NCBI GenBank assembly: GCA_951406725.2
Contig: OX597818.1
Span: 114,142,001 to 114,206,000 of the forward strand
Direction of reading: 5' to 3'
DNA: 64,000 bases
Origin: Octopus vulgaris
Taxonomy: Eukaryota
Shown piece after piece: positions 12,226 to 64,000 of the stretch. The notes beneath the pieces were generated by a model, which saw only the letters and a program-made list of their open reading frames with translations, was not told the DNA's origin and ran no database searches. Within the stretch, counting starts at the first letter, position 1. The number at the start of each line of letters is the position of its first letter. The position numbers and the translations under genes were made by a program.

Positions 12226-13194
12226 GGTACTGTAAGTTTAGCGGGAATACTTGATAAGTGTAAGCACCTATGCCAGATAGTGGCAGAGGTGAGAGAATAT
12301 ATCAAACATAAATTGAAAACAGAACACAAAGGATATCGCAGTACACGTGTTTCAAGCTTTATAAACAATCTGTTAATGCATCAGCATAGGTATATCATTG
12401 ATATAAAAGATGGTTTAAAGCTCTCTTCAGCCGCAAACATTGTTAGTCCAAAATTACATCACAATATAATAAGTACTCGTAGTATTACCCATTATTATAG
12501 GTTTATCATATCCCTTTGAAAAGGTATATTTGCATAAAGGTTCGTTAGATTTCAAAAATCTGCCCATACTGTACCACCATTCAGCATAGAGTGAATGTTA
12601 AATAGATTGGATTGAGTTTATATTTAATTACCGTGTATAAGATAGAAAGAAAAAATAAAAGTATTCGTATGTGTAGTCATGATTGATGTTTTTGGAGACT
12701 GTAACTTGATCGGCGTTTGACAGTTATTAATAACAATGAACATATTGTTTTATGTAGCAAGGTCGATCAGTACATTAGCTGTCAAAGAATTGAATTTCCT
12801 AGCCTAAATGATTTGCATGGAAATGCAAACATTTGTGATTTTGCTTTCCTTTAGCACGTGTACCTTCGTGTGAAACGATTTATTCTATTCTAAACTTTCC
12901 CAGGAAGTTACATGGTTCTTTTCTTTCTTAGTCAACATATTCACAGGAATTATTATTCTCCTTTATTTAGTAATAACCCAGAGTTTGTTTACAAGCTTAA
13001 ATTTTTTGTTTGATTATTGTTCAAATCTTCATTAAATAGACTTATTTTTGCTTTTAAAGAGATGGTGTGTGGGTGTGTGTGAAAAAAGAAAATACGTACA
13101 ATATTTATTTTAATCCAAAAAATTAAAAGTTAGCCTCATTTTTGATATTTTTAGTGTCATTAATCATAATACTACATTTCTCATAACTATGATA

Positions 13195-14466
13195 TTAGGT
13201 TGTTCCGAAAATAATGGCCGACTTCAGAAACATAGTTTTATTCTGGAAAAATTAACAATAGAAATATTTTGATTTGTCAAATTATGACCCATGAACAGCT
13301 ATGCATCTCTCTCATCGATCAACGAGTTTATTTATGCTTCGTTGGCTTTGATGCTAAGAAATCTTTGAACGCTGATTCCACCTCTGGTTTGGACCTGAAA
13401 GTTTTATCACTTAAAAACGTGTTTAAATGCTTAAAAAAACGGTAGACAGTGGGTGAAAGATCAGGAGAATATGGAGGATGTGGTTTCGTCTCGTATTCCA
13501 AGTCTGTAAGTTTCTGTAGCGTCATTCTTGCAACATGTTGCTTTGCATTATCATGGAGCAGAATTGGGCCACACCGATTCACCAATGCAGGTCTCATTTT
13601 TTGCAAGTGAGCATGCATTTTAGCGAGTTGATTGCAGTAAACCTCTGCTGTAATGCTCTGATTGGCCTCCAGAGAGCTGTAATGGACACCACCAATTGCA
13701 GACCACCAGACTGTCACCGTAATCTTTTGCTGATGCAACTTTGGCTTTGGGAAATGTTTGGGGGACTCATCACGATCAAGCCATTGACCCGATCGTTTAC
13801 GGTTATAATAACGGATCCACTTTTCGTCACTAGTGACTATTCGGTTAAGAAAGGGATCATTGGTGTTTCGCAGAAAGAGCATCTTCAAGAAAGAGCACAC
13901 TTCAAAACGCCGAACTTTTTGATTTTCATTGAGCTCTTGCGTACCCCATTTATCGAGCTTTTTCACCCTACTAATCTTCTGCAGATTGCGTGAGACCAGT
14001 GTAATACCGAAATGAAGTGCATGAGTAATTTCTCTGACACTCTAACGTGGGTTTCGTTCAACAATTGCTTTCAACTGTTCATTGTTAAGACTGCACGACC
14101 GTCCTCTACCTTCTTCATCTTCAAGGCTCTCACCACCACTACGGAATTTTTGAAACCACCTTCGTACTGTCTGATCCCTTGTGGACCCCTCACCCCATGC
14201 TCTGTTGATATTGGTAGCGGTTTGGGAGGCATTGTGCCCAAGCTTGAACTCATGCGAGAAAAGTAAACGAAGGTCCTTTTTTGTCATGTTCATAATTAAG
14301 GACACCTCTTCAAGAATGTTTTCGAAATAAGTAGAAAATTATTAAAACGCATACATCAATTATTAACTATGTCGAAACTCCCCTAAAATATAATTAAAAT
14401 ACTATGATAAAATTACGTTTTAAAACATAACACTTAGAGCGGCCATTATTTTCAGAACAACCTTTA
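13195..14466 (-). mobile_element. Full-length decayed mariner (DD34D-type) transposon
   Basis: TIRs are TTAGGTTGTTCCGAAAATAATGGCCG / CGGCCATTATTTTCAGAACAACCT with TA flanks. The transposase is split over ORFs 14042-14305 (HTH, GRGRS) and 13328-13966 (TSDEKW, HDNA, HPPYSPDLSPTVY, in which the third catalytic D is mutated). Confidence 0.95.
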
Positions 14467-17514: not shown

Positions 17515-18114
17515 TATTTCTTTACTACCCACAAGGGGCTAAACAGAGAGAGGACAAACAAGGACAGACAAACGGGTTAAGTCGATTATATCGACCACAG
17601 TGCGTAACTGGTACTTAATTTATCGACCCCAAAAGGATGAAAGGCAAAGCCAACCTCGGCGGAATTTGAACTCAGAACGTAACGACAGACGAAATGCCTA
17701 TTTCTTTACTACCCACAAGGGGGTAAACACAGAGAGGACAAACAAGGACAGACAAACGGGTTAAGTCGATTATATCGACCACAGTGCGTAACTGGTACTT
17801 AATTTATCGACCCCAAAAGGATGAAAGGCAAAGCCAACCTCGGCGGAATTTGAACTCAGAACGTAACGACAGACGAAATGCCTATTTCTTTACTACCCAC
17901 AAGGGGCTAAACACAGAGAGGAAAAACAAGGACAGACAAACGGATTAAGTCGATTATATCTATCCCAGTGCGTAATTGGTACTTATTTAATCGACCCCGA
18001 AAGGATGAAAGGCAAAGTCGACCTCGGCGGAATTTGAACTCAGAACATAACGGCAGACGAAATACCGCTAAGCATTTCGTCCGGCGTGCTAACGTTTCTG
18101 CCAGCTCGCCGCCT
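17515..18114 (-). mobile_element. SINE with a 184-bp internal trimer and a 19-bp TSD
   Basis: Units start at 17515, 17699 and 17883. The TSD TATGGTTGTTTAATTTATA is at 17496-17514 and 18115-18133. Confidence 0.92.
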
Positions 18115-20482: not shown

Positions 20483-28930
<8,448 letters not shown>

Positions 28931-29823: not shown

Positions 29824-29869
29824 AACAACAAACAAGACGAGGACAAATATCCGTCAAATGTAAATAATG

Positions 29870-31371
29870 AAAAAAATGTACATAATTCCTCAACTCTTAA
29901 ATATAGAACTGCATACAGAAATGGTTTCAAATTTTGGCTCAAGGCTAGCAGTTTTAGGGCAGAGGTAAGTCGATTACATAGACCCCAGTACTCAACTGGT
30001 ATTTATTTTATCGATCTCAAAGGGATGAAAAGCAAAGTCGATCCCAGTGATTTTACAACACAGAATGTAAAGCCGAAAGAAGTGTTACTAAGCATTTTGT
30101 AATAACAAATTAATCAAGCAGGATGTATCAATTAGCATTAACAATATTGGACAAAATAGTGGAAATGGAATAATATCTCATCTCCCTATCAGCTGCTGAA
30201 TAATCTTAAGAAGACTGATTCAAAGTTGTCATATTCAAGATTCTAACAATATTCTTTATGCTTTCACTCATCGGACTGCGGCCTATCTGGAGCATTGCCA
30301 TAAAGGGTTTTGTCGATCGTGTCGCATAAGGCTTGTTTTTTAAAGTCTAGTACTTGCTGATTTTATCAATCTGTGAAGTTTTTGCTGTCGACATGTAACT
30401 ATCAATTTCTGAGAATTCAACTGAAAAAGTGAGCATATACGAAGTTGCAGTTTAAATTTGGAGTTCAGTTGCTCTTTTAGCCGAAAGGACGTGATAATAT
30501 CGGACTGAAGATTAGCACTGGATCTCCATTATCTGAGGAAAAGCATCCAACTCATTCCACGTTTTAGCACTAATGTGTTGTAGGTGTGTTAAACACGTTT
30601 TCCATTGTTATCAATAGAAAACGAGAGGATGTATATTCTCTGGTAGGTGCATAATCTTTTGTAAGATTATCTATTATCGATCGAACGAGCGATTGTTTTT
30701 TCAGCACGGGTATCCCTTCCTCTGCACTAGAATATATACTGAATGGTGAGAGAAACTACATATGACAGATTGTGCAGGTTATTCAATATTCTATCCTTTA
30801 CATATGCTCCAGTCGTCAAATAATAAAACAATCTTCTAACAATGATTTCTGAGCAGATCAATACGCTATAGTGGATAAACTAAAACGTATCCAGCTACGT
30901 CAGAAACAGCATTATGTTACGTTCACTATCGAAAAAAGCTTTCTGTTTTAGAGACAAATGAGATGTTGACATGCTCAGCGCTATCGCGTGTGACGAATAG
31001 CACTTTTCAGGTTTATAAATTGGGTGACGCATTTTGTTTCGAGATGAAGCACCTGCTCACAGAGATTCTGCTATACACTGTCCATATACATATCGCATAT
31101 ATTAATGCTAATTAATACATCCTGCTTGATTAATTGTTTATAACAAAATGCTTAGTAACACTTCTTTCGGCTTTACGTTCTGTGTTGTAAAATCATTGGG
31201 ATCGACTTTGCTTTTCATCCTTCTGAGATCGATAAAATAAATACCAATTGAGTACTGGGGTCGTTGTAATCGACTTACCTTTTCCTCAAAACTGCTGGCC
31301 TTGAGCCAAAATTTGAAACCATTTCTGTAAACAGTTCTATATTTAAGAGTTGAGGAATTATGTACATTTTT
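29870..31371. repeat. Inverted duplication with ~270-bp arms (29870-30141 / 31102-31371)
   Basis: The arms are diverged reverse complements and include a SINE fragment together with its flanks. Confidence 0.9.
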
Positions 31372-31615
31372 TACATTGTACACTGTGTACTGTCTTAATA
31401 GATTTTTGTATTGCAGGAATAACATTGTCTTTTGTTTATAATCCATGTACAGTCGTGGCTGTGTGGTAAGATGTTTGTTTTCCAACTATATGGTTCTGCG
31501 TTCAGTCCCATTGCGAGGCACCGTCGGCGACTGAATTCTAATATAGCCCCAGGTCGACCAAAGCCTTGTGAGTGAATTTGGTTAAGGGAAACTGAAAGAA
31601 GTCTGTTGTATATGA

Positions 31616-49812: not shown

Positions 49813-50016
49813 TAAAAGTCACAATACATGTATTAAAGCGCCACTAATAGTTTCATATGTTGAGAGAATTCCAACATATTCTTCAGGCGCAAACCACATA
49901 TCATACCGAACTAAAAAATTGAATAAATAGAAGAAACGGGATGAAGCTGAGAAAGCAGTATATAGAAAACGCAGACAGTAAACAACGGAAAGCGAAAAGC
50001 GGAAAAAGAAACTAAA

Positions 50017-51350
50017 GTGTCAAAAGGTAAAAGGTGCTATCCCCCTGAGGCCTTAAATGCTAAGTCTGGAAAGATAAAAGATACTATGATATCTATGAAG
50101 AAGTTAAATTCCTCGCATATTTATGATAGATTAGAATGCTTAGCTAAGAGAGAGGCGTTCATTACTTTAAAAGACTATTATCCACATTTTCATAATAATC
50201 CTTCCAGTGGATTGTTAAACCCAACGAGATCTGAAATTGGGCTAGTAGTTAAAAAATACTTAGGAGTATTAATATTAGAATTAAGGAAATTACTGGGCTT
50301 CAACAATAGAACAACAGTTTTACTGTAATAGATTGGTTTAAGAATATCAAGAATAAGAATAAGGCTAAATTTACCCAGTTTGATATCATAGACTTTTATC
50401 CCTTTGTATCTAGATCGCTACTTGATAAAGCTATTGAACTTACTAATTCATACGTTGAAATTGACCCTATAGATCTAGATTTTATCAGGCATACGAGAAC
50501 ACTTTTGTTCACTAAAGGTTTAGCATGAGTAAAAATGTTGCATAGTGATGAACTATTTGATGCATCCATGGGGTCATGTGATAGTGCTGATGTCTGTGAT
50601 CTTGTGGGTGTATTAAACACATTGAGATATAGATACCCAGCTCATGACATTGGCCTATACCGTGACGACGGTTTAGGTATTTCCCTTGGGTGTAATGGTT
50701 ACACCCTTGATAGATTTAGGAAGGAATTAATTTCAACATTTAATCTATTAGGACTTAAAATAACCGTAGCTATTAATCTCTGTATAGTTCATTACTTAGA
50801 TGGTTCCCTAGATTTAAACTCCTCGTATAAACCTTTCCATAAGCCTAATGAGAAACTCACATATATACATAAACAATCTTGTTACCTTCCTGTAGTATTT
50901 AAAAACCTGATAGCTAATATCAGTAACAGAGTGTCTAACCTCTCTTCTTCCAAAGAAATTTTCGACGAAGCTGCTCCCTATTATAAAAAGGCCTTAACCA
51001 AGAGTGATTTCAAATATAAATTGAAATATAAACCCTCTATTAATCAAAATATATACTTAGCAGATCTAGTGGTATCAAAGATAAAGTAGTACCTAACCAT
51101 TCTAGTATTAATCAGGATAATAAGTAACCAAAAAAATAGGACAACGAAAATTATTTGGTTCGCCCCTCTCTTTTCCCTTAGTATCAAAACTAACATTGGT
51201 AAAAAATTCCTGTCACTCCTAGACAAACACTCTCCAGCTACTCACAGATACAGGAAAATATTCAATAGGCGTTCTGTGAAATTATCATATAGCTTCCGCC
51301 GTTTAATACTATATATTAACAATATTAAATCTCTGAGCGACAAGTAAACG
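50017..51350 (+). pseudogene. Penelope-like element RT remnant
   Basis: AFITLKD..F.NNP..LLNP.RSEIG, FTQFDIIDFYP, FDASMGSCDSADVCDLVG, GLYRDDGLG, YLD, YKPFHKPN and IIWFAP..TNIGKKFLSLLDKH, with stops and frameshifts. Confidence 0.9.
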
Positions 51351-52620: not shown

Positions 52621-52753
52621 ACCAAAAATTTGGTTGAAATAAATAAAATATTTGAGATTTGTATGTTTTGTTTTATGTATGTATTTTCATGCATATAACT
52701 ATATCTGACATGCTCATATCTGACATGCTCATATCTGACATATTCATATATAT

Positions 52754-54740
52754 TTAAGTGATAAACTTCTGGAAAGTTTTACAGATTTGTGTAGTTCCAG
52801 TGATGGATTTGATCAGTAGTCTTCGAATTAGTTTTCTCCTTTCTGGTTTAGAGAAGCCTAATTCCTCAAGATTGGTATTTAGACAGTGTGTTACATATCC
52901 CAAGTTCCCAATAATTGCAGGTATAAACCTGAACTTGCAATCTGGATAGAGTAGCTGCAGATTTCTCTTTTCACTGTTCTTCAGCTTTATGTTAACATCC
53001 TCTGGGCAGCTAATTTCCACAACTGTGCACAGTTTCTCTTCTCTATCCCAAATCCTTATATCAGGTCTGTTGTGCTTACATTTTATTGAAGCTTTCACTG
53101 GGACATTCCACAGTAATCCATACTGCGAGTTCTTATTTCTTATCCATCCGACGTATTTCATTATATAGTGTCCTAGCTACAACATCATGACTCATCGGTA
53201 GATAATACCGAGATGACATTTTCGGACGACTGCTTATGATGTGGGTGATATCTTCGGTCTTAACTCTACAAAGTCTGCATCGGTTGTCACATTTTACTGC
53301 TTTTCCTGCGTCTCTATCCCTTGTGTGCATCAGGTATTTGGTTGATATTTTCTGTTCCTGGATTGCAAACACATACCTTTCAAAGTGGGAGGTAGTAATC
53401 TGGCTATTAGTCCATGATAGACTGCTTTGATGATCAATGTTACTATCATCTCGGAGCTTTCTACTAATATATATATGCACGGTCTTCTGCTGATATACGC
53501 TCACCCTTTCATCTGATGATATATTTCGGTAGAGTCGTGTGACGTCTTTGGGCATGTATTTAAGTCTATCAGATAAGGAATGTTTCTCAAAGAGCTGCTT
53601 TCTAAGTCTCATGGTTTTATCAGCCTCATATATGTAAACTTCGTCAAGGGACACACTTCGACACTTGATGGTTAAAAGATGTTGCCGAAGGGATATGATA
53701 CGACATTCAAAGGCCGTCTGGACTGATGTTAAACCTCTGCCACTTTGTTTTCATTTCAGGTAAAGACGCTACTGTTGATGTGGAAGTTACGTGTGCTGGT
53801 TAGAAAATTCCGGGTTTTCACACCAGTGACTCGGATCTCATCAAGCGTCCAATCAAGCAGCCCAACTGTTGGTATGAGTACTGGCACTCCAAAGAAATTT
53901 TGTTGAATGCAGAGAGTTTCGAGGTCTAAATTTTCTTTATTCTACTGTAATATTCTTTAGTGTTACGTTGCAGGTTCCATTGTAAGACATGTTTTCATCC
54001 ACCCCTAGACGCCTGTAACATTCATCATCAAATATAGGGGATGTTGCTAGGGTGGTTTACAGTTTTTCCCTTTTCATAATCATATAGCAACAATTTTCCT
54101 GACCAAATTCCAACCCTACATTCTTTGAGAATGTTTTAACCAGGTCAGAGCTCTTTTTCATCTCGTGCATATTCTTTGCATAAAGATTCAAGCCAACCAC
54201 ACAAAACAAGTATGCTATTTTGGTATTTCTGTTTCCTTGGGAACCAGTGAGATATCCTTCAGACTTCCATAACATGAACGACAATGGATTTACAGAAAGT
54301 ATAAACAACATCACAGAGCGGTTGTCTCCTTGGAATAAACCTCTGCGAAACTCTACTCTGCCAGTGATAATACAATCACATTTTGCATTTAACTTCAAGA
54401 TGGTGGCCCACGATGAAGTCAGGTCACCTATCACATTGACCATGCTCACTGGAACTTTAGAAGATTGAAAGGCTTCTAGCATCCGTGAGTGAGGAACAGA
54501 ATCAAAGGCTTTCTTGTAGTCTAGCCACATTGAAACTAGATTCCTCCTATGCTCTCGCACGTCCGGCATTACAGTTTTGCTTAACAGTTGCTCGGCACAT
54601 TCCTAGAATCCGTTCATCCCAGCCGCTTGTTCTCCTGTGATGATGTTATTACTTTCACAACGGTGTTGGAGGAAGAGGTTTAAGCATGCTGTTTATATTG
54701 TATACGTTAAGCTCTGGCATGCTATCGGCCGGTAGTGTAT
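52754..54740 (-). pseudogene. Decayed R4-type LINE (RT plus REL), a different family from the 24876 element
   Basis: [41 protein letters not shown] and HNRPDI..VVEISCP. Confidence 0.88.
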
Positions 54741-56589: not shown

Positions 56590-57180
56590 GGAATGAAGGT
56601 GGAAAAGATAGTGTTGTGAAGGAGATCAAAGCAACTGAGCCTGAATCCAGATATTAATATTTGTGAAATTTTGAAACTGATGTAACTAAGAACAATGATA
56701 TGACAGAAAAAAAAACAAAAAAAAAAAAAAAGAGGAAAGAGTACCTGCGGCGAGTGAGAAAAATATTGGTTTCAAAGTTGATTGCCAGATACTTCGGCAA
56801 TAAACTTGCGCGCAGTCGCGGTTGTTCGGTGTGGCGCTGGAATCCTGAAGTAGAGAGAGGAGGAACTAAAGAAATGAACAGGAAGACAAGAAAGCTTCTA
56901 ACGATGCCTGGAGCCCATCATCCACGTGCAGACACTGATCACCTATACACGAAGGGAGCAAATGGAGGAAGGGGGCTGATAGGTATGGAAGACTTGGGAA
57001 CTTGCAGAAATATTTATTCGAAAGTGAGGCAACCCTGATAGTGTCAGTTAGGGATGAAAGCAAGAGAACAGAAAGGAACAAGACAAGAAATGCGAGAGGG
57101 ATGTAAAGAGGCAGCATGCGATATGGGATTACGCAATGAATTCCACGTAGCAACAACTGAAATTGCTGGAAAACGTAGGT
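56590..57180 (+). pseudogene. R4-type LINE fragment (post-RT region)
   Basis: EYLRRVRKIL.SKL and MNRKTRKLLTM.GAHHPRADTDHLY...GGRGL. Confidence 0.8.
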
Positions 57181-57183
57181 GGT

Positions 57184-57630
57184 GGCGGCGCGATGGCAGA
57201 AACGTTAGCACGCCGGGCGAAATGCGTAGCCGTATTTCGTCTGCCGTTACGTTCTGAGTTCAAATTCCGCCGAGGTCGACTTTGCCTTTCATCCTTTCGG
57301 GGTCGATAAATTAAGTACCAATTACGCACTGGGGTCGATATAATCGACTTAATCCGTTTGTCTTTCCTTGTTTGTCCTGTCTGTGTTTAGCCCCTTGTGG
57401 GTGGTAAAGAAATAGGTATTTCGTCTGCCGTTACGTTCTGAGTTCAAATTCCGCCGAGGTTGACTTTGCCTTTCATCCTTTCGGGGTCGATAAATTAAGT
57501 ACCAATTACGCACTGGGGTCGATATAATCGACTTAATCCGTTTGTCTGTCCTTGTTTGTCCTGTCTGTGTTTAGCCCCTTGTGGGTAGTAAAGAAATAGG
57601 TATTTCGTCTGCCGTTACGTTCTGAGTTCA
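57184..57630 (+). mobile_element. SINE with 184-bp internal tandem units (same family as 17515-18114)
   Basis: Units start at 57232, 57416 and 57600 (the last partial). Confidence 0.9.
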
Positions 57631-57950
57631 AAGGAATAAGATCGAAGCTATCAGCACCTGGGCAATTTCACTCCTTAGATATGGAGCAGGGGTAATCACA
57701 TGGACAGTAGACGAATTAAACAGCTTAGATAGAAAGACAAGGAAATTGCTAACTAGATATAGGTTACTCCACCCAAAATGTGACACAGACAGACTGTATG
57801 TACCAAGAAAAAGAGGGGAAAGAGGACTTATTGGATGCGAACACAGCATTAGAGCAGAAGAAAACAACATAGCATGGTATGTAACAACTGCCACAGAACC
57901 ACTATTTTTAGAAGTAGGACGGTCAGGCTTGTGTAGGATGAAAGATTGCA
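57631..57950 (+). pseudogene. Another R4-type LINE fragment
   Basis: NKIEAISTWAI..LRYGAG, LDRKTRKLLT and HPKCDTDRLYVPRKRGERGL. Confidence 0.8.
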
Positions 57951-57982
57951 AAGTTATATATATATGTATGTATATATATATA

Positions 57983-58460
57983 CCGTAAATACTCGAGTAT
58001 AGGCCGCCCTTGAGTATAATACGCAGGGGACTTTTAGGAGGCTGTACCTCTGAAAAACCTAAACTTTGTGTATAATACGCACCCCTTCTCTAACTTGAAT
58101 GAAGGAGGTCTATATAAGTCCTTGGTTTGTAAAAATGTATTCGGTAACGTCCTTTATTATTATTGTATATATAACATAATGCAAACGTGTAGCTTTTTTG
58201 AGCATTTTCTTTGCATAAAATAAAGAAATAACAGTAATAACATTTAATAAATGTTGCTAATTGCAAGTTATGGATGATTTAAGGTATTTTCGCGCCCGAC
58301 ATCACAAAATGCGTCTGAATAAACATTCCCGGACAGCAAATAGAGACTGGAACATTGCTTAGAAAATATTTTTCATTTTTAACCTCATATATAGTAAACA
58401 CTAGGGATTTTGCGCTTTAAATTCTAAGAAAAAATACGGATTATACTCGAGGATTTACGG
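57983..58460. mobile_element. Pogo/Tigger-like MITE
   Basis: TIRs CCGTAAATACTCGAGTATA / TATACTCGAGGATTTACGG within TA flanks; non-coding. Confidence 0.85.
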
Positions 58461-58510
58461 TATATATATATATATATTTAAAATAATATGTTACAATTAC
58501 TCAATAGTCA

Positions 58511-58573
58511 AGATAAAACTCTGAGTTTCAGATGCCGAAGTGGAAATCCACAACACCATCTCTTCGGTTATCT
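58511..58573 (-). ncRNA. Hammerhead-like motif (U4C variant) downstream of the PLE on the same strand; partial copy at ~1600-1680
   Basis: Minus strand reads agataa-CCGAAGA-GATG..(gtgga ttt ccac)..CATC-t-GAAA-CTC a GAG-TT-ttatct. Confidence 0.6.
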
Positions 58574-59369
58574 GGCCATCTGAAAAAACGCTATGAAAAA
58601 TACCGTTATATAAAGGGAAATTACTGTGTTATAATAAGATTAAAATTTCATAGTAAACATGTCTAGTGATACGCTCACATGTGCGCTCGCGGACCCACGT
58701 GCGTACTTATGCGTCACTATGAAAACGTACACATCTTCACTCGCATTTTTCGCCAAATATATACGTATATATATACAAACTCATACACGCAACATGCGTA
58801 CCGTAAAAGTTCATACATACGTCTATATACGCACAAGCGCAAGAAAAACAATGGTTAAAGGTAACAGAAAAAACATAAGGAAGTATACAAAGCATAAAAA
58901 CCACGTTCATATACGGACATGCCCTTATGCACTCATACACACACGCCCATATATGTACATACCCGTACATGTTTATATACGCATACACACACATGCATAT
59001 ACGAAAAATGAATATACATATGCCCCCCCACACACACACCAAAAAAACCTTAAAAAATGGAAAAGTACTAAGTAAAAACGTCTATATATATATATGCATT
59101 CTTATGCCCGCACACACGCACACATCTAAAACTGCCCACTCAGACATATTCATACACGTGTACAAATGAATCTATATACACGTCTATATAGGCACAGGTA
59201 AAAATGCAGGATAGAAAAGTACAGAAAAAATTATTGTGTGAAAATATAAAAATATATGAAATAATAAAAGGTATAATGAGATAAAAACTTTTTGGGACAT
59301 AATATAGAAAGCAAGTTCTATCTGTTTTCTTTAGGGGACTAAAAACGTAATAAAAATTTTGTCACATGT

Positions 59370-60530
59370 GGGCATGATCCGAAAAGTTCTGTCCTTGAGT
59401 TTAGACATGTAGTAGGGTCTAAACTGCTTTTCCTGATAAGCCATCTCTCCATGTCGCACAGACCGCACTTTCCGCTGCCGTTGGTGTAGGGCTTACATTT
59501 TGCCAAAATCTTCCAATGGATGTTATAATCGACACCTTTATCTTTTAAAGACCAAATATGATTAGATAATTTTGTCGCTTTTCTTTTGTTCCAGTGCCTA
59601 AACTCAAGGTGTGGTTATTGAACCTGGCCTTGAAATTACCCTCTGTAAGGCCCACGTATTTCTTCGTCGAAACGGTGTCTTTAGTGGTTATAGAGTCCAC
59701 GGTAGCTTCATAGATGATGGTCTCGGACATGCAAGCTCCATTTAGCGGGCACAATTTTTTATTCCTGCATGAACAGCTGTTTTCTTGTTGTGGTTTTTGT
59801 GTGTTATGTGTGATTATATTTTTAAAATTGGTAGTTGAACTAAAACTAATTTTTAAATTGTGTTTATTGAAGAGTTTCCTATAAGTATGGTTAACTGGAA
59901 AATGTCTATCTATCAGTGTTAAGAAATATTTACCTATATTGAAGGTCACCTCAGGTGAGTAAGGGGGTGTAAACCAGATGATCTTCCTATTTCTATTTTT
60001 CCTCTTCTTTACTGTTAGGCTAGTAACAGGTGTATATTTTATTTTTTCGCTAAAACCACTATCTTTTAAAGCCTTATTATAAACTGGGGCAACGCTATTA
60101 AAAATGTCCTTATCGGAGGAGAGGCTAGAAATTCTCTTACTAATATTTTAAACTAAATTTTTGAATACTATAGGGGGATGGCATGAACCTACATTAATAT
60201 AACTAAGTCTATCATTGGGCTTCCTATAATGCTTATAAATATTCTTATTTAGATCTAAGGAAACGTCTAGGAAATTGACAACCGTCAGGTTAGTATCTAT
60301 AGCTATACTAAGTCCGAAGTATTTCATTAATTGGATAATATCCTTCCTAAAACGATCCTGTGCTGGTCCATTTGTATTAGCGGTTAAAGCGAGGGCATCA
60401 TCTTTGTAGATGGCGAAATATACGTCAGGAAATGTCTTACCTAAAGTATCTAAGAGAAAAAATCCAATAATATCGCAAATGCCTGCTGCATCATATGACC
60501 CCATGCTCACATCGAAAGCACCCTCTGTTT
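59370..60530 (-). pseudogene. Penelope-like element remnant: RT C-terminal half plus GIY-YIG endonuclease
   Basis: SMGSYDAAGICDIIG, IYKDDAL, VNFLDV and HPP, then FNIGKYFLTLIDRHF, CSCR..CPLNGAC, IIYEATV...KYVGLTE..FKARFNNH and a downstream CGLC. Confidence 0.92.
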
Positions 60531-60578
60531 ACATAATATTGAGGTATCTTTCTTTCTTTTGTTATCTTACCGTTTTTA

Positions 60579-60652
<74 letters not shown>

Positions 60653-60777: not shown

Positions 60778-62613
60778 ATAGGAGAAGGAAAGATCCAGAG
60801 ACGGGAAGACAGAGGAAAAAGATCGCCAACGGTACACACGAGGTCAGTGAATGTCTGTGTAGGTGTAAGTGGTGGCGACACAAGTGGGAAAATGGAAGTA
60901 GAAGAAGAAAGGTAAAAAAGGACGAGGAAAAAGTGAAAGAGTCACGGACAAATTTTTTTGATTTCCAATCACGATTTCAGTGGCGTACTCCGGAAGAATG
61001 GTAACAGTAATCCGTAGGCGTAAAAATCAAGGAATTGGTATCCAAGGCACTCAGAGAGCCGGGGTCCGTGTGAGCGTGCGGTATGTAAAGTTAATCCAAA
61101 CAAGAAAGCACAAAAAATACAACAATGCGAGGACGTGGAACAAATATAGTATTATTGGACGCTCAGGAAAGAAGGAAAGAAGAAGAGTTTAACGTTTCGA
61201 GGGGAGCTTTTCGTCGGAAACATAGGAGAAGGAAAGGTCCAGAGAAGGGAAGGCAGAGGAAAAAAATCGCCAACGATATATATACAATTTAAAAATAGGA
61301 TAAAATCTTCATAAGAATTTATCAAGTAGTTAGCATGAAAACCTCATAAGACAAAAAATCCACATAAGAAAAAAATTATATATATATACATACATAATAC
61401 ACACACACACACACACGCAGATACACACACACACACACACACACACATACACACACACACAAACATATATATACGGAGCAAATAACTCAGGAGTAAAAAT
61501 AATTTTTAAAAAATAATTTGCGAAGATAGCAAAAAAGCATTAAATAGCTTTACGTTTTATTTACACTTTTTTCAACGCTTTCTTCCGTTATCGGATTTAT
61601 CAAAAAGTGATTTAAAGTTAGATTTCTTTGGTCTTTTTATATGTAAAAAATTTGTGGTGTTTGCCAAGCATGGGAGAAGAAAGAAAAGAAAGTTGTTTTG
61701 AGAAAGGAGTGGGGAAGAGGCATACAAAATTGGTATGGTCAGACTTCTCTGTTTAGTATTTAGTGACTTTTTTATGGTGGGGAAGGAAAAACAATTTTTG
61801 TATTTGAATTGATTTTAACTGAAAAACCAGATGTTACTTTTGGCTTTCTTTAATAAAAATTATAATTGCATTTCCATGTCTTGTTTCTTTATGCTTTTCT
61901 GTTCATTAATGTGGTGGAGGTATAGAAGTCTGTTTTTGTAATAGTGTGATAACAGTTTTGTAGCAGTCAGGATTATTAACTGAAAACCCCAGATGTTCTT
62001 GACTTTCTTCAGTAGAAATCATAATTGCATTTCTAGGTCTTGTTCTTTTGTATTCAATAAAGAATAGTTGTATGGATGTGATCTACTTCTTTTGATTGAA
62101 TTTCTAGATGTTTTTGAAATAGTAATTTCAAAAACCAAACCACACACCACCAAACCATGCCACGCCACACCACATCACACCACCCTGCACACACAAGCAT
62201 TGACCACTTCCCAGAACCCACACCACCATCTACATGCCTACACATGCACCCCACCCACACGTCAAGGTCACCAGCCCCAATCCACACGCACACGCTCTCA
62301 CATACACACGAACGCGCACCTTCGTTTTGAGATCAACACTACTTTATTATCTCCCCTTCTTCCTAGCCCACCTGTCGACTTCTAGCCACTAAAACTTCTT
62401 ATATTTTCTCGTATTCCTTTCTGTTGAAGAGAGTAAGCTCGGAACGTAAAATACTTTCTCCTCTTCTCGAGCTTTAAACAAATACACCTGTTTGTTATTT
62501 ACACATCTAACTTCATCGTTTGTTTTTTGTTTGTAAATTTCAACTATATATATGCATATATACATATGCAAGCAGACATACACACACACACATACACATA
62601 TAAACACACAGAC

Positions 62614-62684
<71 letters not shown>

Positions 62685-62687
<3 letters not shown>

Positions 62688-63133
62688 CAAAATTAAGGAA
62701 CGGCCATAATAGGCCGTTCAACCCACTAGAAATAGCAGCCAAGGCTTCAACCGCAAAACAATATTAATTCCGTAAACCAGGAGAAAATTTAAAAAAACAT
62801 TTACCCTGTAATACTTTATACAATGCATCGTTTCGTCTATTTTTTAATGGTAAATCAACCTGATTAAATTAAATCAAGCTAATCTTCCATAGGCCAATAG
62901 ATTCATCAGTAAAGTAAGCCAGACGGGACAGATATTTTCACGAGGCAGCACCATTACTGTCTCGGCTATATCTGACCTAAAATTTTCAAATCATCGTACT
63001 CGTGCCAAATTTATCGGCAGCAAATATAAGCTGCCGATTCCATTTCGGAATTAAACAGAAAATTCATAATTAATCAATATAGGGTGGCAAAAAATTCAGC
63101 AGAAATTATTTGCCACCAGCAAATATTGATTAA
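62685..63133 (-). mobile_element. Diverged solo copy of the ~492-bp HHR unit
   Basis: Colinear with 3099-3540, with many substitutions; flanked by (TA)n on both sides. Confidence 0.95.
62812..62916 (-). ncRNA. Type I hammerhead ribozyme (solo copy)
   Basis: TACTTTA-CTGATGA-aTCTATT...AATAGAc-GAAA-CGATG CATTG-TA-TAAAGTA. The stems are conserved by compensatory changes relative to the array. Confidence 0.88.
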
Positions 63134-63143
63134 TATATATTGA

Positions 63144-63191
<48 letters not shown>

Positions 63192-63211
63192 CATATATAT
63201 ATATATAAATA

Positions 63212-63262
<51 letters not shown>

Positions 63263-63448
63263 TAAGCAATTAAGGGTTTAGCAACGAATTGCCTCATCAC
63301 ACACCCAATTTAGAAATAGCAGTCAAAGGGTTATAGCTATTCTTTCTACTAAAAGGGAGATCTCAGTAAAAACACAGCACTTGAAAGGCAAACACAGACA
63401 GGTAAGAGAGAATGAAATGACGCCAATCTATCATACAAGTTTAAGTCA

Positions 63449-63539
63449 CCTACGGACGTACGTTTCGAAATCAAGTTTTAGGAAAGCATAAGAATTAGAT
63501 AATTCTACCTTACCCAACTTCTTTTCTCATCAGCGTAGG
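63449..63539 (-). ncRNA. Canonical type I hammerhead ribozyme (left arm of the palindrome)
   Basis: CCTACG-CTGATGA-GAAA...TTTC-GAAA-CGTACG-TC-CGTAGG. Stem I is perfect, stem III is the palindrome ACGTACGT and the triplet is GUC. Confidence 0.9.
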
Positions 63540-63719
63540 ATACTACAATGATGAATAATTGTATATTAAATTTTGAGATACTAGAAGGCATCATCTCAAA
63601 TCAGTGTCAGAGCGAGCTAAAGCATTACATTAAATGCTTTAGCTCGCTCTGACACTGAGTTGAGATGATGCCTTCTAGTATCTCAAAATTTAATATACAA
63701 TTATTCATCATTGTAGTAT

Positions 63720-63810
63720 CCTACGGTGATGAGAAAAGAAGTTGGGTAAGGTAGAATTATCTAATTCTTATGCTTTCTTAAAACTTGATTTCGAAACGTA
63801 CCTCCGTAGG
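63720..63810 (+). ncRNA. Mutated hammerhead (right arm of the palindrome)
   Basis: Same motif, but the core reads GTGATGA (C3G) and stem III reads CGTACCTC; probably inactive. Confidence 0.6.
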
Positions 63811-64000
63811 TGACTTAAAATTGTATGATAGATTGCCGTCATTTCATTCTCTCTTACCTGTCTGTGTTTGCCTTTCAAGTGCTGTGTTTTTACTGAGATC
63901 TCCCTTTTAGTAGAAAGAATAGCTATAACCCTTTGACTGCTATTTCTAAATTCGGTGTGTGGTGAGGCAATTCGTTGCTAAACCCTTAATTGCTTAGTAT

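Follow-up and report, generated by a model that had tools for sequence, protein, structure and literature searches.

A head-to-head pair of hammerhead retroelement copies in Octopus vulgaris, probably mobilised by a Penelope-like element

The window analysed here, 64,000 nucleotides of Octopus vulgaris contig OX597818.1, ends in a palindrome whose arms each carry a hammerhead ribozyme, intact on the left and disabled on the right. The palindrome is probably a non-autonomous, non-coding hammerhead element, either a retrozyme or a solo pseudo-LTR, that was mobilised by a Penelope-like element (PLE) and lies head-to-head in a (TA)n tract; the mobiliser would be an endonuclease-positive PLE acting in trans. 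Published PLEs are known for inverted copies placed head-to-head, for junctions that are palindromic, for hammerheads on opposite strands and for a (TA)n target. One account describes PLE insertions as favouring (TA)n and as often accompanied by a 5'-truncated inverted copy and by a tail at one of their ends (10.1101/2021.04.23.441226). The locus displays a head-to-head 5'-truncated copy, a palindromic junction, a hammerhead in the terminal repeat and (TA)n on the left; the asymmetric tail known from published PLEs cannot be seen in the window, beyond which the right end lies. The unit also has the traits of a retrozyme: it is non-coding, falls within the ~150-450 bp range, has a GC content below 45% and contains a canonical type I hammerhead. 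Animal retrozymes have been argued to be non-autonomous PLE derivatives (10.64898/2026.07.22.740005). As a single locus the palindrome would be an ordinary product of PLE biology, valuable as a clean example. The element forming it (family 2) seems to represent a cephalopod family without earlier description, in a known PLE-type arrangement: a literature search, mostly without subscription papers and without repeat databases, found no published description of family 2 or of its 3' module.

Table 1. Coordinates of the palindrome, its parts and related elements in the window
Feature	Position	Strand	Basis or remark
(TA)n target tract, left flank	63147..63261	.	Tandem-repeat search
Left arm: family 2 copy (non-coding hammerhead retroelement) truncated at its 5' end	63262..63626	-	3' end adjoins (TA)n
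Central spacer ACATTA	63627..63632	.	Sequence read and DNA fold of the centre
Right arm: second family 2 copy, head-to-head with the left	63633..63997	+	8 substitutions, no indels; window ends at 64000
Intact type I hammerhead	63449..63539	-	Descriptor and fold; runs from 63539 to 63449
Disabled hammerhead	63720..63810	+	C3G (63726), G16.2C (63802), stem II G-C to G-U (63778)
3'-terminal module common with family 1: 18-nt motif, GU-rich hairpin, CCTTAATT, TA junction	63262..63328	-	Shuffle-tested alignment
Mirror copy of the 3'-terminal module	63931..63997	+	Sequence comparison
Arm differences (left/right, in left-to-right sense)	63659, 63726, 63778, 63802		T/G, C/G, C/T, G/C
Arm differences (left/right, in left-to-right sense)	63820, 63836, 63953, 63962		C/A, G/C, G/C, A/G
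Diverged (~83%) solo family 1 copy	62685..63120	-	Same (TA)n cluster, directly left of the palindrome
Decayed 5'-truncated Hydra-clade PLE between (TA)n tracts	58470-60580	-	~2.7 kb left of the palindrome
Decayed PLE RT remnant, same general type	49900-51300	+	ORF list and protein comparison

The palindrome and its two ribozymes

An inverted-repeat search places the arms at 63259-63626 and 63633-64000 (368 nt each, 6 nt between them), and direct comparison reveals 8 substitutions over 368 columns with no gaps, a divergence of ~2.2%. The outermost 3 nt on each side are letters of the TA repeat, and the element proper spans 63262-63997. Because the right arm reaches the window edge (64000), 3 nt beyond the mirrored element end, the arm length of 368 bp is a lower bound. 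Those 3 nt (TAT) are all that is visible to the right, and they are compatible with (TA)n, like the left end; the TA tract would mask any target-site duplication. Read another way, the spacer is a 3-nt loop plus a single additional A. It includes a CATTA duplication in tandem, and we infer that the centre is a minimal fold-back-type junction. The arm has 132 G+C nucleotides among its 368 (36% GC), with at least 365 nt of the unit visible. Six-frame translation finds no stop-free stretch exceeding 42 codons on the ribozyme strand of the arm and no coding remnant; together with the ORF list it finds no RT/GIY-YIG ORF inside the arms in the visible DNA up to 64000. Blastn within the window detects no third copy, which makes family 2 a single locus in these 64 kb, where it also forms no head-to-tail tandem, its right side being cut by the window edge. 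A distant blastn search with the left arm returned no match among phages or plasmids.

The left hammerhead comprises a helix I of 6 bp, CUGAUGA, a 60-nt stem II region, GAAA, a 2-bp helix III and a GUC triplet; C3 lies at 63533, and cleavage is predicted after C17 at 63455. A 2x2 internal loop comes after helix I and another after the 4-bp helix II, which then continues into a long imperfect stem extension, 60 nt in all. The two base pairs of helix III enclose a GUAC loop, and ACGUACGU is self-complementary: fold computation assigns -9.8 kcal/mol to the helix III dimer duplex, compared with +2.4 for the monomer hairpin. With its CUGANGA/GAAA/UH core, three helices and open helix I, the left copy belongs to type I, whereas the right copy falls outside this class. 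G16.2C breaks helix III in the right copy, the active fold of which lies 10.0 kcal/mol above the free ensemble (3.8 kcal/mol for the left copy), and a PLE hammerhead carrying C3G reportedly no longer cleaves (PMC11167929). Both ribozymes face away from the palindrome centre, their helix I starts separated by 181 bp. An earlier sequence-only reading had proposed 368-bp arms around a 6-nt spacer with (TA)n on the left, and outward-facing hammerheads of which the left is canonical and intact and the right disabled by C3G and a stem III change; the inverted-repeat search and arm comparison confirm the former and the results above the latter, G16.2C being the stem III change.

Our descriptor requires at least 6, 4 and 2 bp in helices I, II and III, thresholds picked after the motif had been seen. 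It matches none of 100 block-shuffled windows and none of 20,000 shuffled arms, while the real window yields nine matches—the left copy and eight copies in an array of a second family at 3-7 kb. The ribozyme strand of the left arm folds better than 100/100 shuffles (z -2.56), as against z -0.64 for the opposite strand. Rfam gives no match at the gathering score across the whole 64 kb. At E<=10, the 31 matches within 62600-64000 include no hammerhead, and the best are generic hairpin and miRNA models below the gathering score; we rejected the miRNA matches at the palindrome, which reflect the hairpin alone. The 60-nt stem II may be beyond the Rfam hammerhead models, and since no Rfam hammerhead match exists, the call of the left hammerhead rests on the descriptor and the fold. 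Long stems II have a precedent in plant PLE hammerheads tabulated with a loop 2 near 30 nt (PMC8557442 supplement). That a canonical 6-bp/4-bp hammerhead with a long stem II escapes Rfam implies that such families are probably under-counted.

Canonical metazoan type I hammerheads are described as having a 6-bp helix I, a 4-bp helix II and a short palindromic helix III, and as working best as dimers (PMC4209133). The left copy matches this geometry. For an axolotl ribozyme whose helix III likewise has 2 bp, 22% of the monomer was reportedly cleaved within an hour and the dimer performed far better (PMC7229834); among animal retrozymes, 8 of 9 that were assayed reportedly failed to cleave in vitro (10.64898/2026.07.22.740005). 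By analogy, the left hammerhead is probably a weak cleaver alone and a better one as a helix III dimer. Failure of the left-arm RNA to cleave had been offered as grounds for refutation; because hammerheads with a 2-bp helix III cut weakly as monomers and well as dimers, poor cleavage by the left monomer would refute nothing.

A 3' module shared with a neighbouring family

The array at 3-7 kb consists of a different, retrozyme-like element (family 1), arranged as a head-to-tail tandem with one hammerhead per unit, in (TA)n and with head-to-head copies. The 18-nt motif of the 3' module is identical at 16 positions between the two families and is followed by the hairpin, CCTTRATT and the TA junction. 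When the last 80 nt are aligned with family 1, the score is reached by 3/2000 and 4/2000 shuffles; for the remainder of the arm it is reached by 308/2000, which indicates that the bodies are unrelated. At up to 4 mismatches the motif has 14 matches in the whole window: 11 have 0-1 mismatch, all of them at family 1 or family 2 3' ends, and the remaining three have 4 mismatches each and lie outside these ends. A profile of the module recovers nine family 1 and two family 2 ends, which are its own sources or copies of them, plus four matches at E>2. The module is absent from both Hydra-type PLE 3' ends of the window, to which the arm has no homology either. Two 10-nt forms of the motif gave two matches in a published PLE consensus file, both apparently coding, although line breaks in the file may conceal others; four short motifs gave no relevant match in that file. 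A pattern scan of prokaryotic genomes for the module returned a single match, in a Streptococcus agalactiae scaffold, which we dismissed as chance, there being no TA tract or other likeness within 400 bp.

The short 3' module, common to two non-coding families, is a candidate for the signal that the mobilising enzyme recognises. This role is plausible by analogy with the Chlamys elements, for which 3' ends common to non-autonomous and autonomous PLE families are described (PMC8557442). The module also lends support to the proposal that array and palindrome were integrated by common machinery, and is better evidence for it than the orientation of the ribozymes. It also weighs on a different reading, in which the palindrome is a palindromic MITE or foldback DNA transposon of the Tc1/mariner-like kind with a TA target and an incidental hammerhead. 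Long terminal inverted repeats flanked by TA would suit such an element, and the palindrome has them on its left side, 3 nt of the right flank being visible. This origin is nevertheless very improbable: the end is homologous to the family 1 3' end, which is found in head-to-tail tandems and one-ended copies, the RNA structure is strand-specific, and the ribozyme is far beyond chance expectation.

The outward architecture that the sequence-only reading saw in both the array and the palindrome is indeed common to them, but the description of the two as otherwise different families has to give way to the common 3' module, and their junctions differ. In the array, the left arm ends at position 246 of the unit and the right one begins at position 1, a junction offset by ~245 nt, unlike the palindrome junction, which is symmetric around a 3-6 nt loop. 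Five units make up the right side of the array, and its right end reaches 105 nt further along the unit than the left. In the solo family 1 copy beside the palindrome, the hammerhead lies at ~62812-62916 (by eye), its helices kept through compensating changes; the descriptor missed it because helix II has an A-C pair at its base. Short inverted stubs at its inner end (63123-63147) stop at the unit position of the array right end, which suggests that family 1 has two fixed ends 105 nt apart, resembling a long PLE tail.

The array also bears on the reading of the palindrome as the 5' end of something longer, a complete autonomous PLE or an extended tandem array, with an ORF or further units past position 64000. 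An inverted pseudo-LTR together with a direct one is the typical PLE layout as published, and the array does run on for five units rightward where the palindrome shows only 3 nt past its mirrored end. Against this, the visible TAT fits (TA)n as at the left end, the arm contains no ORF start, and the 3' module is common with a non-coding family. We regard this extension as unlikely, and keep to a non-autonomous element inserted by PLE machinery.

Differences between the arms

Three of the eight arm mismatches fall in the ribozyme: the two that disable the core and one in stem II. Two core mismatches among eight correspond to P 0.035, or 0.064 on G/C sites alone, in a post hoc test, and the enrichment is marginal. 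The earlier observation that two of the few mismatches hit the ribozyme thus stands as a count and not as a significant excess. A selected regulatory unit, either a source of hairpin RNA or siRNA or a switch from which one ribozyme was deliberately lost, would make sense of both core changes lying on one arm, as well as of the predicted fold of a read-through RNA, in which 718 of 736 nt are paired in one long hairpin. With core enrichment at the margin (P 0.035-0.064) and a repeat-dense region around the locus, there is scarcely any likelihood of such a function. Under the preferred reading, a PLE-mobilised insertion, the hairpin would hide both ribozymes and most likely leave the copy inert or a source of dsRNA, and extrusion of a cruciform or production of hairpin RNA from the palindrome is plausible on folding grounds.

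The spectrum of the mismatches is unlike neutral divergence within the window. C↔G exchanges account for 4/8 arm differences, compared with 51/811 substitutions in 41 other repeat pairs (6%; binomial P 9e-4), and with 16/163 when the pairs are limited to those of 90% identity or more (P 5e-3 for the palindrome's 4/8). The background excludes pairs shorter than 60 bp, pairs touching the palindrome, masked microsatellites and pairs overlapping a kept pair by more than 20%; the test is post hoc, and the background pairs are non-independent. All four polarisable differences are derived on the right arm: the two core changes and two helix sites (pairing probability 0.98 and 1.0), the latter polarised by folding energy. 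This 4/4 bias is not significant alone (two-sided P 0.125). Arm positions 27, 188, 321 and 330 are ambiguous in polarity, and folding energy at 27 and 188 slightly favours the right allele. Three of the eight mismatches lie in or adjoin a left-arm CpG, compared with 20/132 G/C sites, numbers too small for judgement. The one-sided C↔G pattern might stem from errors made while the second arm was synthesised, from uncorrected C-C mismatches or from systematic read error. C-C mismatches may escape arm-to-arm correction; the literature search found no support for their poor repair.

The same mismatches weigh on whether the palindrome arose by host fold-back inversion, or as a sequencing or assembly chimera, turning inside a solo family 2 copy. 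The C↔G excess and the placement of the polarised changes on one arm favour such an event, and with the right arm at the window edge and a self-complementary (TA)n tract, the mirroring may extend further. However, the arms differ by 2.2% substitutions without a single indel, whereas indels dominate between near-identical array copies (11 gap columns and 6 substitutions in 2100), a contrast that disfavours raw long-read error, and two nearby family 1 insertions are likewise 5'-inverted, as expected of a habit specific to the element. A fold-back of this kind or a chimera is accordingly quite improbable. The suggestion that the arm mismatches argue against an assembly artefact holds insofar as they count against one; given the odd spectrum and the position of the right arm at the window edge, they do not exclude it.

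Proposed origin and genomic context

Under the preferred reading of a PLE-mobilised insertion, a PLE protein would have bound the element RNA close to the 3' end, the probable contact being the module with its motif and hairpin, and would have nicked the (TA)n tract and primed reverse transcription there; the 3' end of the element lies at TA. The template would have been uncleaved or re-ligated RNA, because the copy spans the cleavage site, with sequence present on both sides of 63455. Uncleaved RNA has been reported as the main insertion substrate in vitro (PMC11167929). Synthesis would have halted 94 nt upstream of the ribozyme core, after which the cDNA end may have folded back via the 3-6 nt loop and been copied into the symmetric second arm, as seen at the junction; a symmetric loop with a CATTA duplication is what cDNA fold-back would leave. 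In Adineta, head-to-head repeats with palindromic junctions are described as the commonest form and read as self-priming (PMC3846280). Alternatively, two independent priming events could have been joined at the centre. The eight differences between the arms would have come afterwards; two of them destroy the ribozyme on the right.

The published systems, as far as the cited sources describe them, resemble the palindrome in part. Inverted pseudo-LTR insertions of endonuclease-positive PLEs (PMC3846280, PMC8557442) share its head-to-head arrangement, palindromic junction, near-3' hammerhead, (TA)n and 5' truncation; the palindrome differs in having no visible ORF, a junction symmetric over the whole visible length and, at the window edge, no visible 30-40 bp tail. 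Animal non-LTR retrozymes (PMC7229834, 10.64898/2026.07.22.740005) are likewise non-coding and a few hundred nt long, with low GC, a short helix III, structured RNA and PLE co-occurrence, but are defined as head-to-tail tandems in contrast to the head-to-head palindrome, where an internal loop and stem extension take the place of loop 2. Opposite-strand hammerheads 100-700 bp apart are reported in Schistosoma mansoni (PMC4209133), a range that includes the 181 bp found here, and in Penelope-13_HM both strands have hammerheads (PMC8557442 supplement). Unlike those of the palindrome, the ribozymes of both are minimal or Hydra-type and associated with PLE families already described. Hydra-clade PLEs including Hydra-1_Obim (PMC8557442) share (TA)n targeting, a 3' hammerhead and presence in octopus; the hammerheads tabulated for them have a helix III of 3-4 bp with a 1-3 nt loop, a short stem II and a position ~100-200 nt from the end, unlike family 2.

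The window holds two PLE remnants, at 58.5-60.6 kb (-) and 49.9-51.3 kb (+), which match RT/GIY-YIG proteins of 540-727 aa, with four matches among 848 candidates (46% over 198 aa; 59% over 46 aa for the 49.9-51.3 kb remnant). The matched proteins carry the RWK, DKT and CxCX5C motifs described for the Hydra clade, and by eye the frame at 60.1-60.5 kb is very close to Hydra-1_Obim (PMC8557442 and its supplement). A Pfam search with four remnant frames and the four homologues gave a sub-threshold GIY-YIG match (E 0.021) as its sole result. The 3' end of the 58470-60580 remnant contains a Hydra-type hammerhead variant at ~58571-58513 with the core CCGAAGA, and this end recurs at 1573-1665 (86%). 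A Hydra-type PLE as the driver of family 2 was considered and is unsupported, as the module is absent from both ends; no autonomous partner for family 2 emerged among the PLE remnants of the window.

A broader conjecture, which we put forward tentatively and with a low chance of being right, is that cephalopods harbour a guild of otherwise unrelated non-coding hammerhead retroelements that have in common one 3' cis-module of ~65 nt, recognised by one and the same PLE enzyme; symmetric palindromes of these elements would arise by cDNA fold-back with an error-prone, C↔G-rich second arm. If so, genome-wide counts would test self-priming against twin priming for PLE inverted repeats, the formation of which the cited PLE papers call unresolved between these two routes. 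Genome-wide recurrence of symmetric palindromes with the one-sided C↔G pattern would likewise bear on it.

The window as a whole is repeat-rich DNA. On the minus strand, 12336-12436 contains a motif resembling a hammerhead, its stem II 70 nt long and its helix III region palindromic, present as a single copy with no stability above shuffles (z 0.06) and no 3' module. A perfect (ATT)n tract of ~1359 units occupies 4 kb at 20800-24875 with 100% matches, and is either real or an assembly expansion. Fragmented ORFs with RT lie beside triplet microsatellites at 25051-28860 (-), 52750-54600 and 56670-57990; we take them to be of a non-LTR retrotransposon family, with a C-terminal region presumably resembling a restriction-like endonuclease. 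The motifs at 13328-14041 (-) are those of what we assume to be a mariner-like transposase fragment. An inverted pair at 29866-30141 and 31102-31377 has arms of 276 bp that are 93% identical and 961 bp apart, and which by eye resemble a 184-bp tandem repeat at 17515-18063 and 57232-57632.
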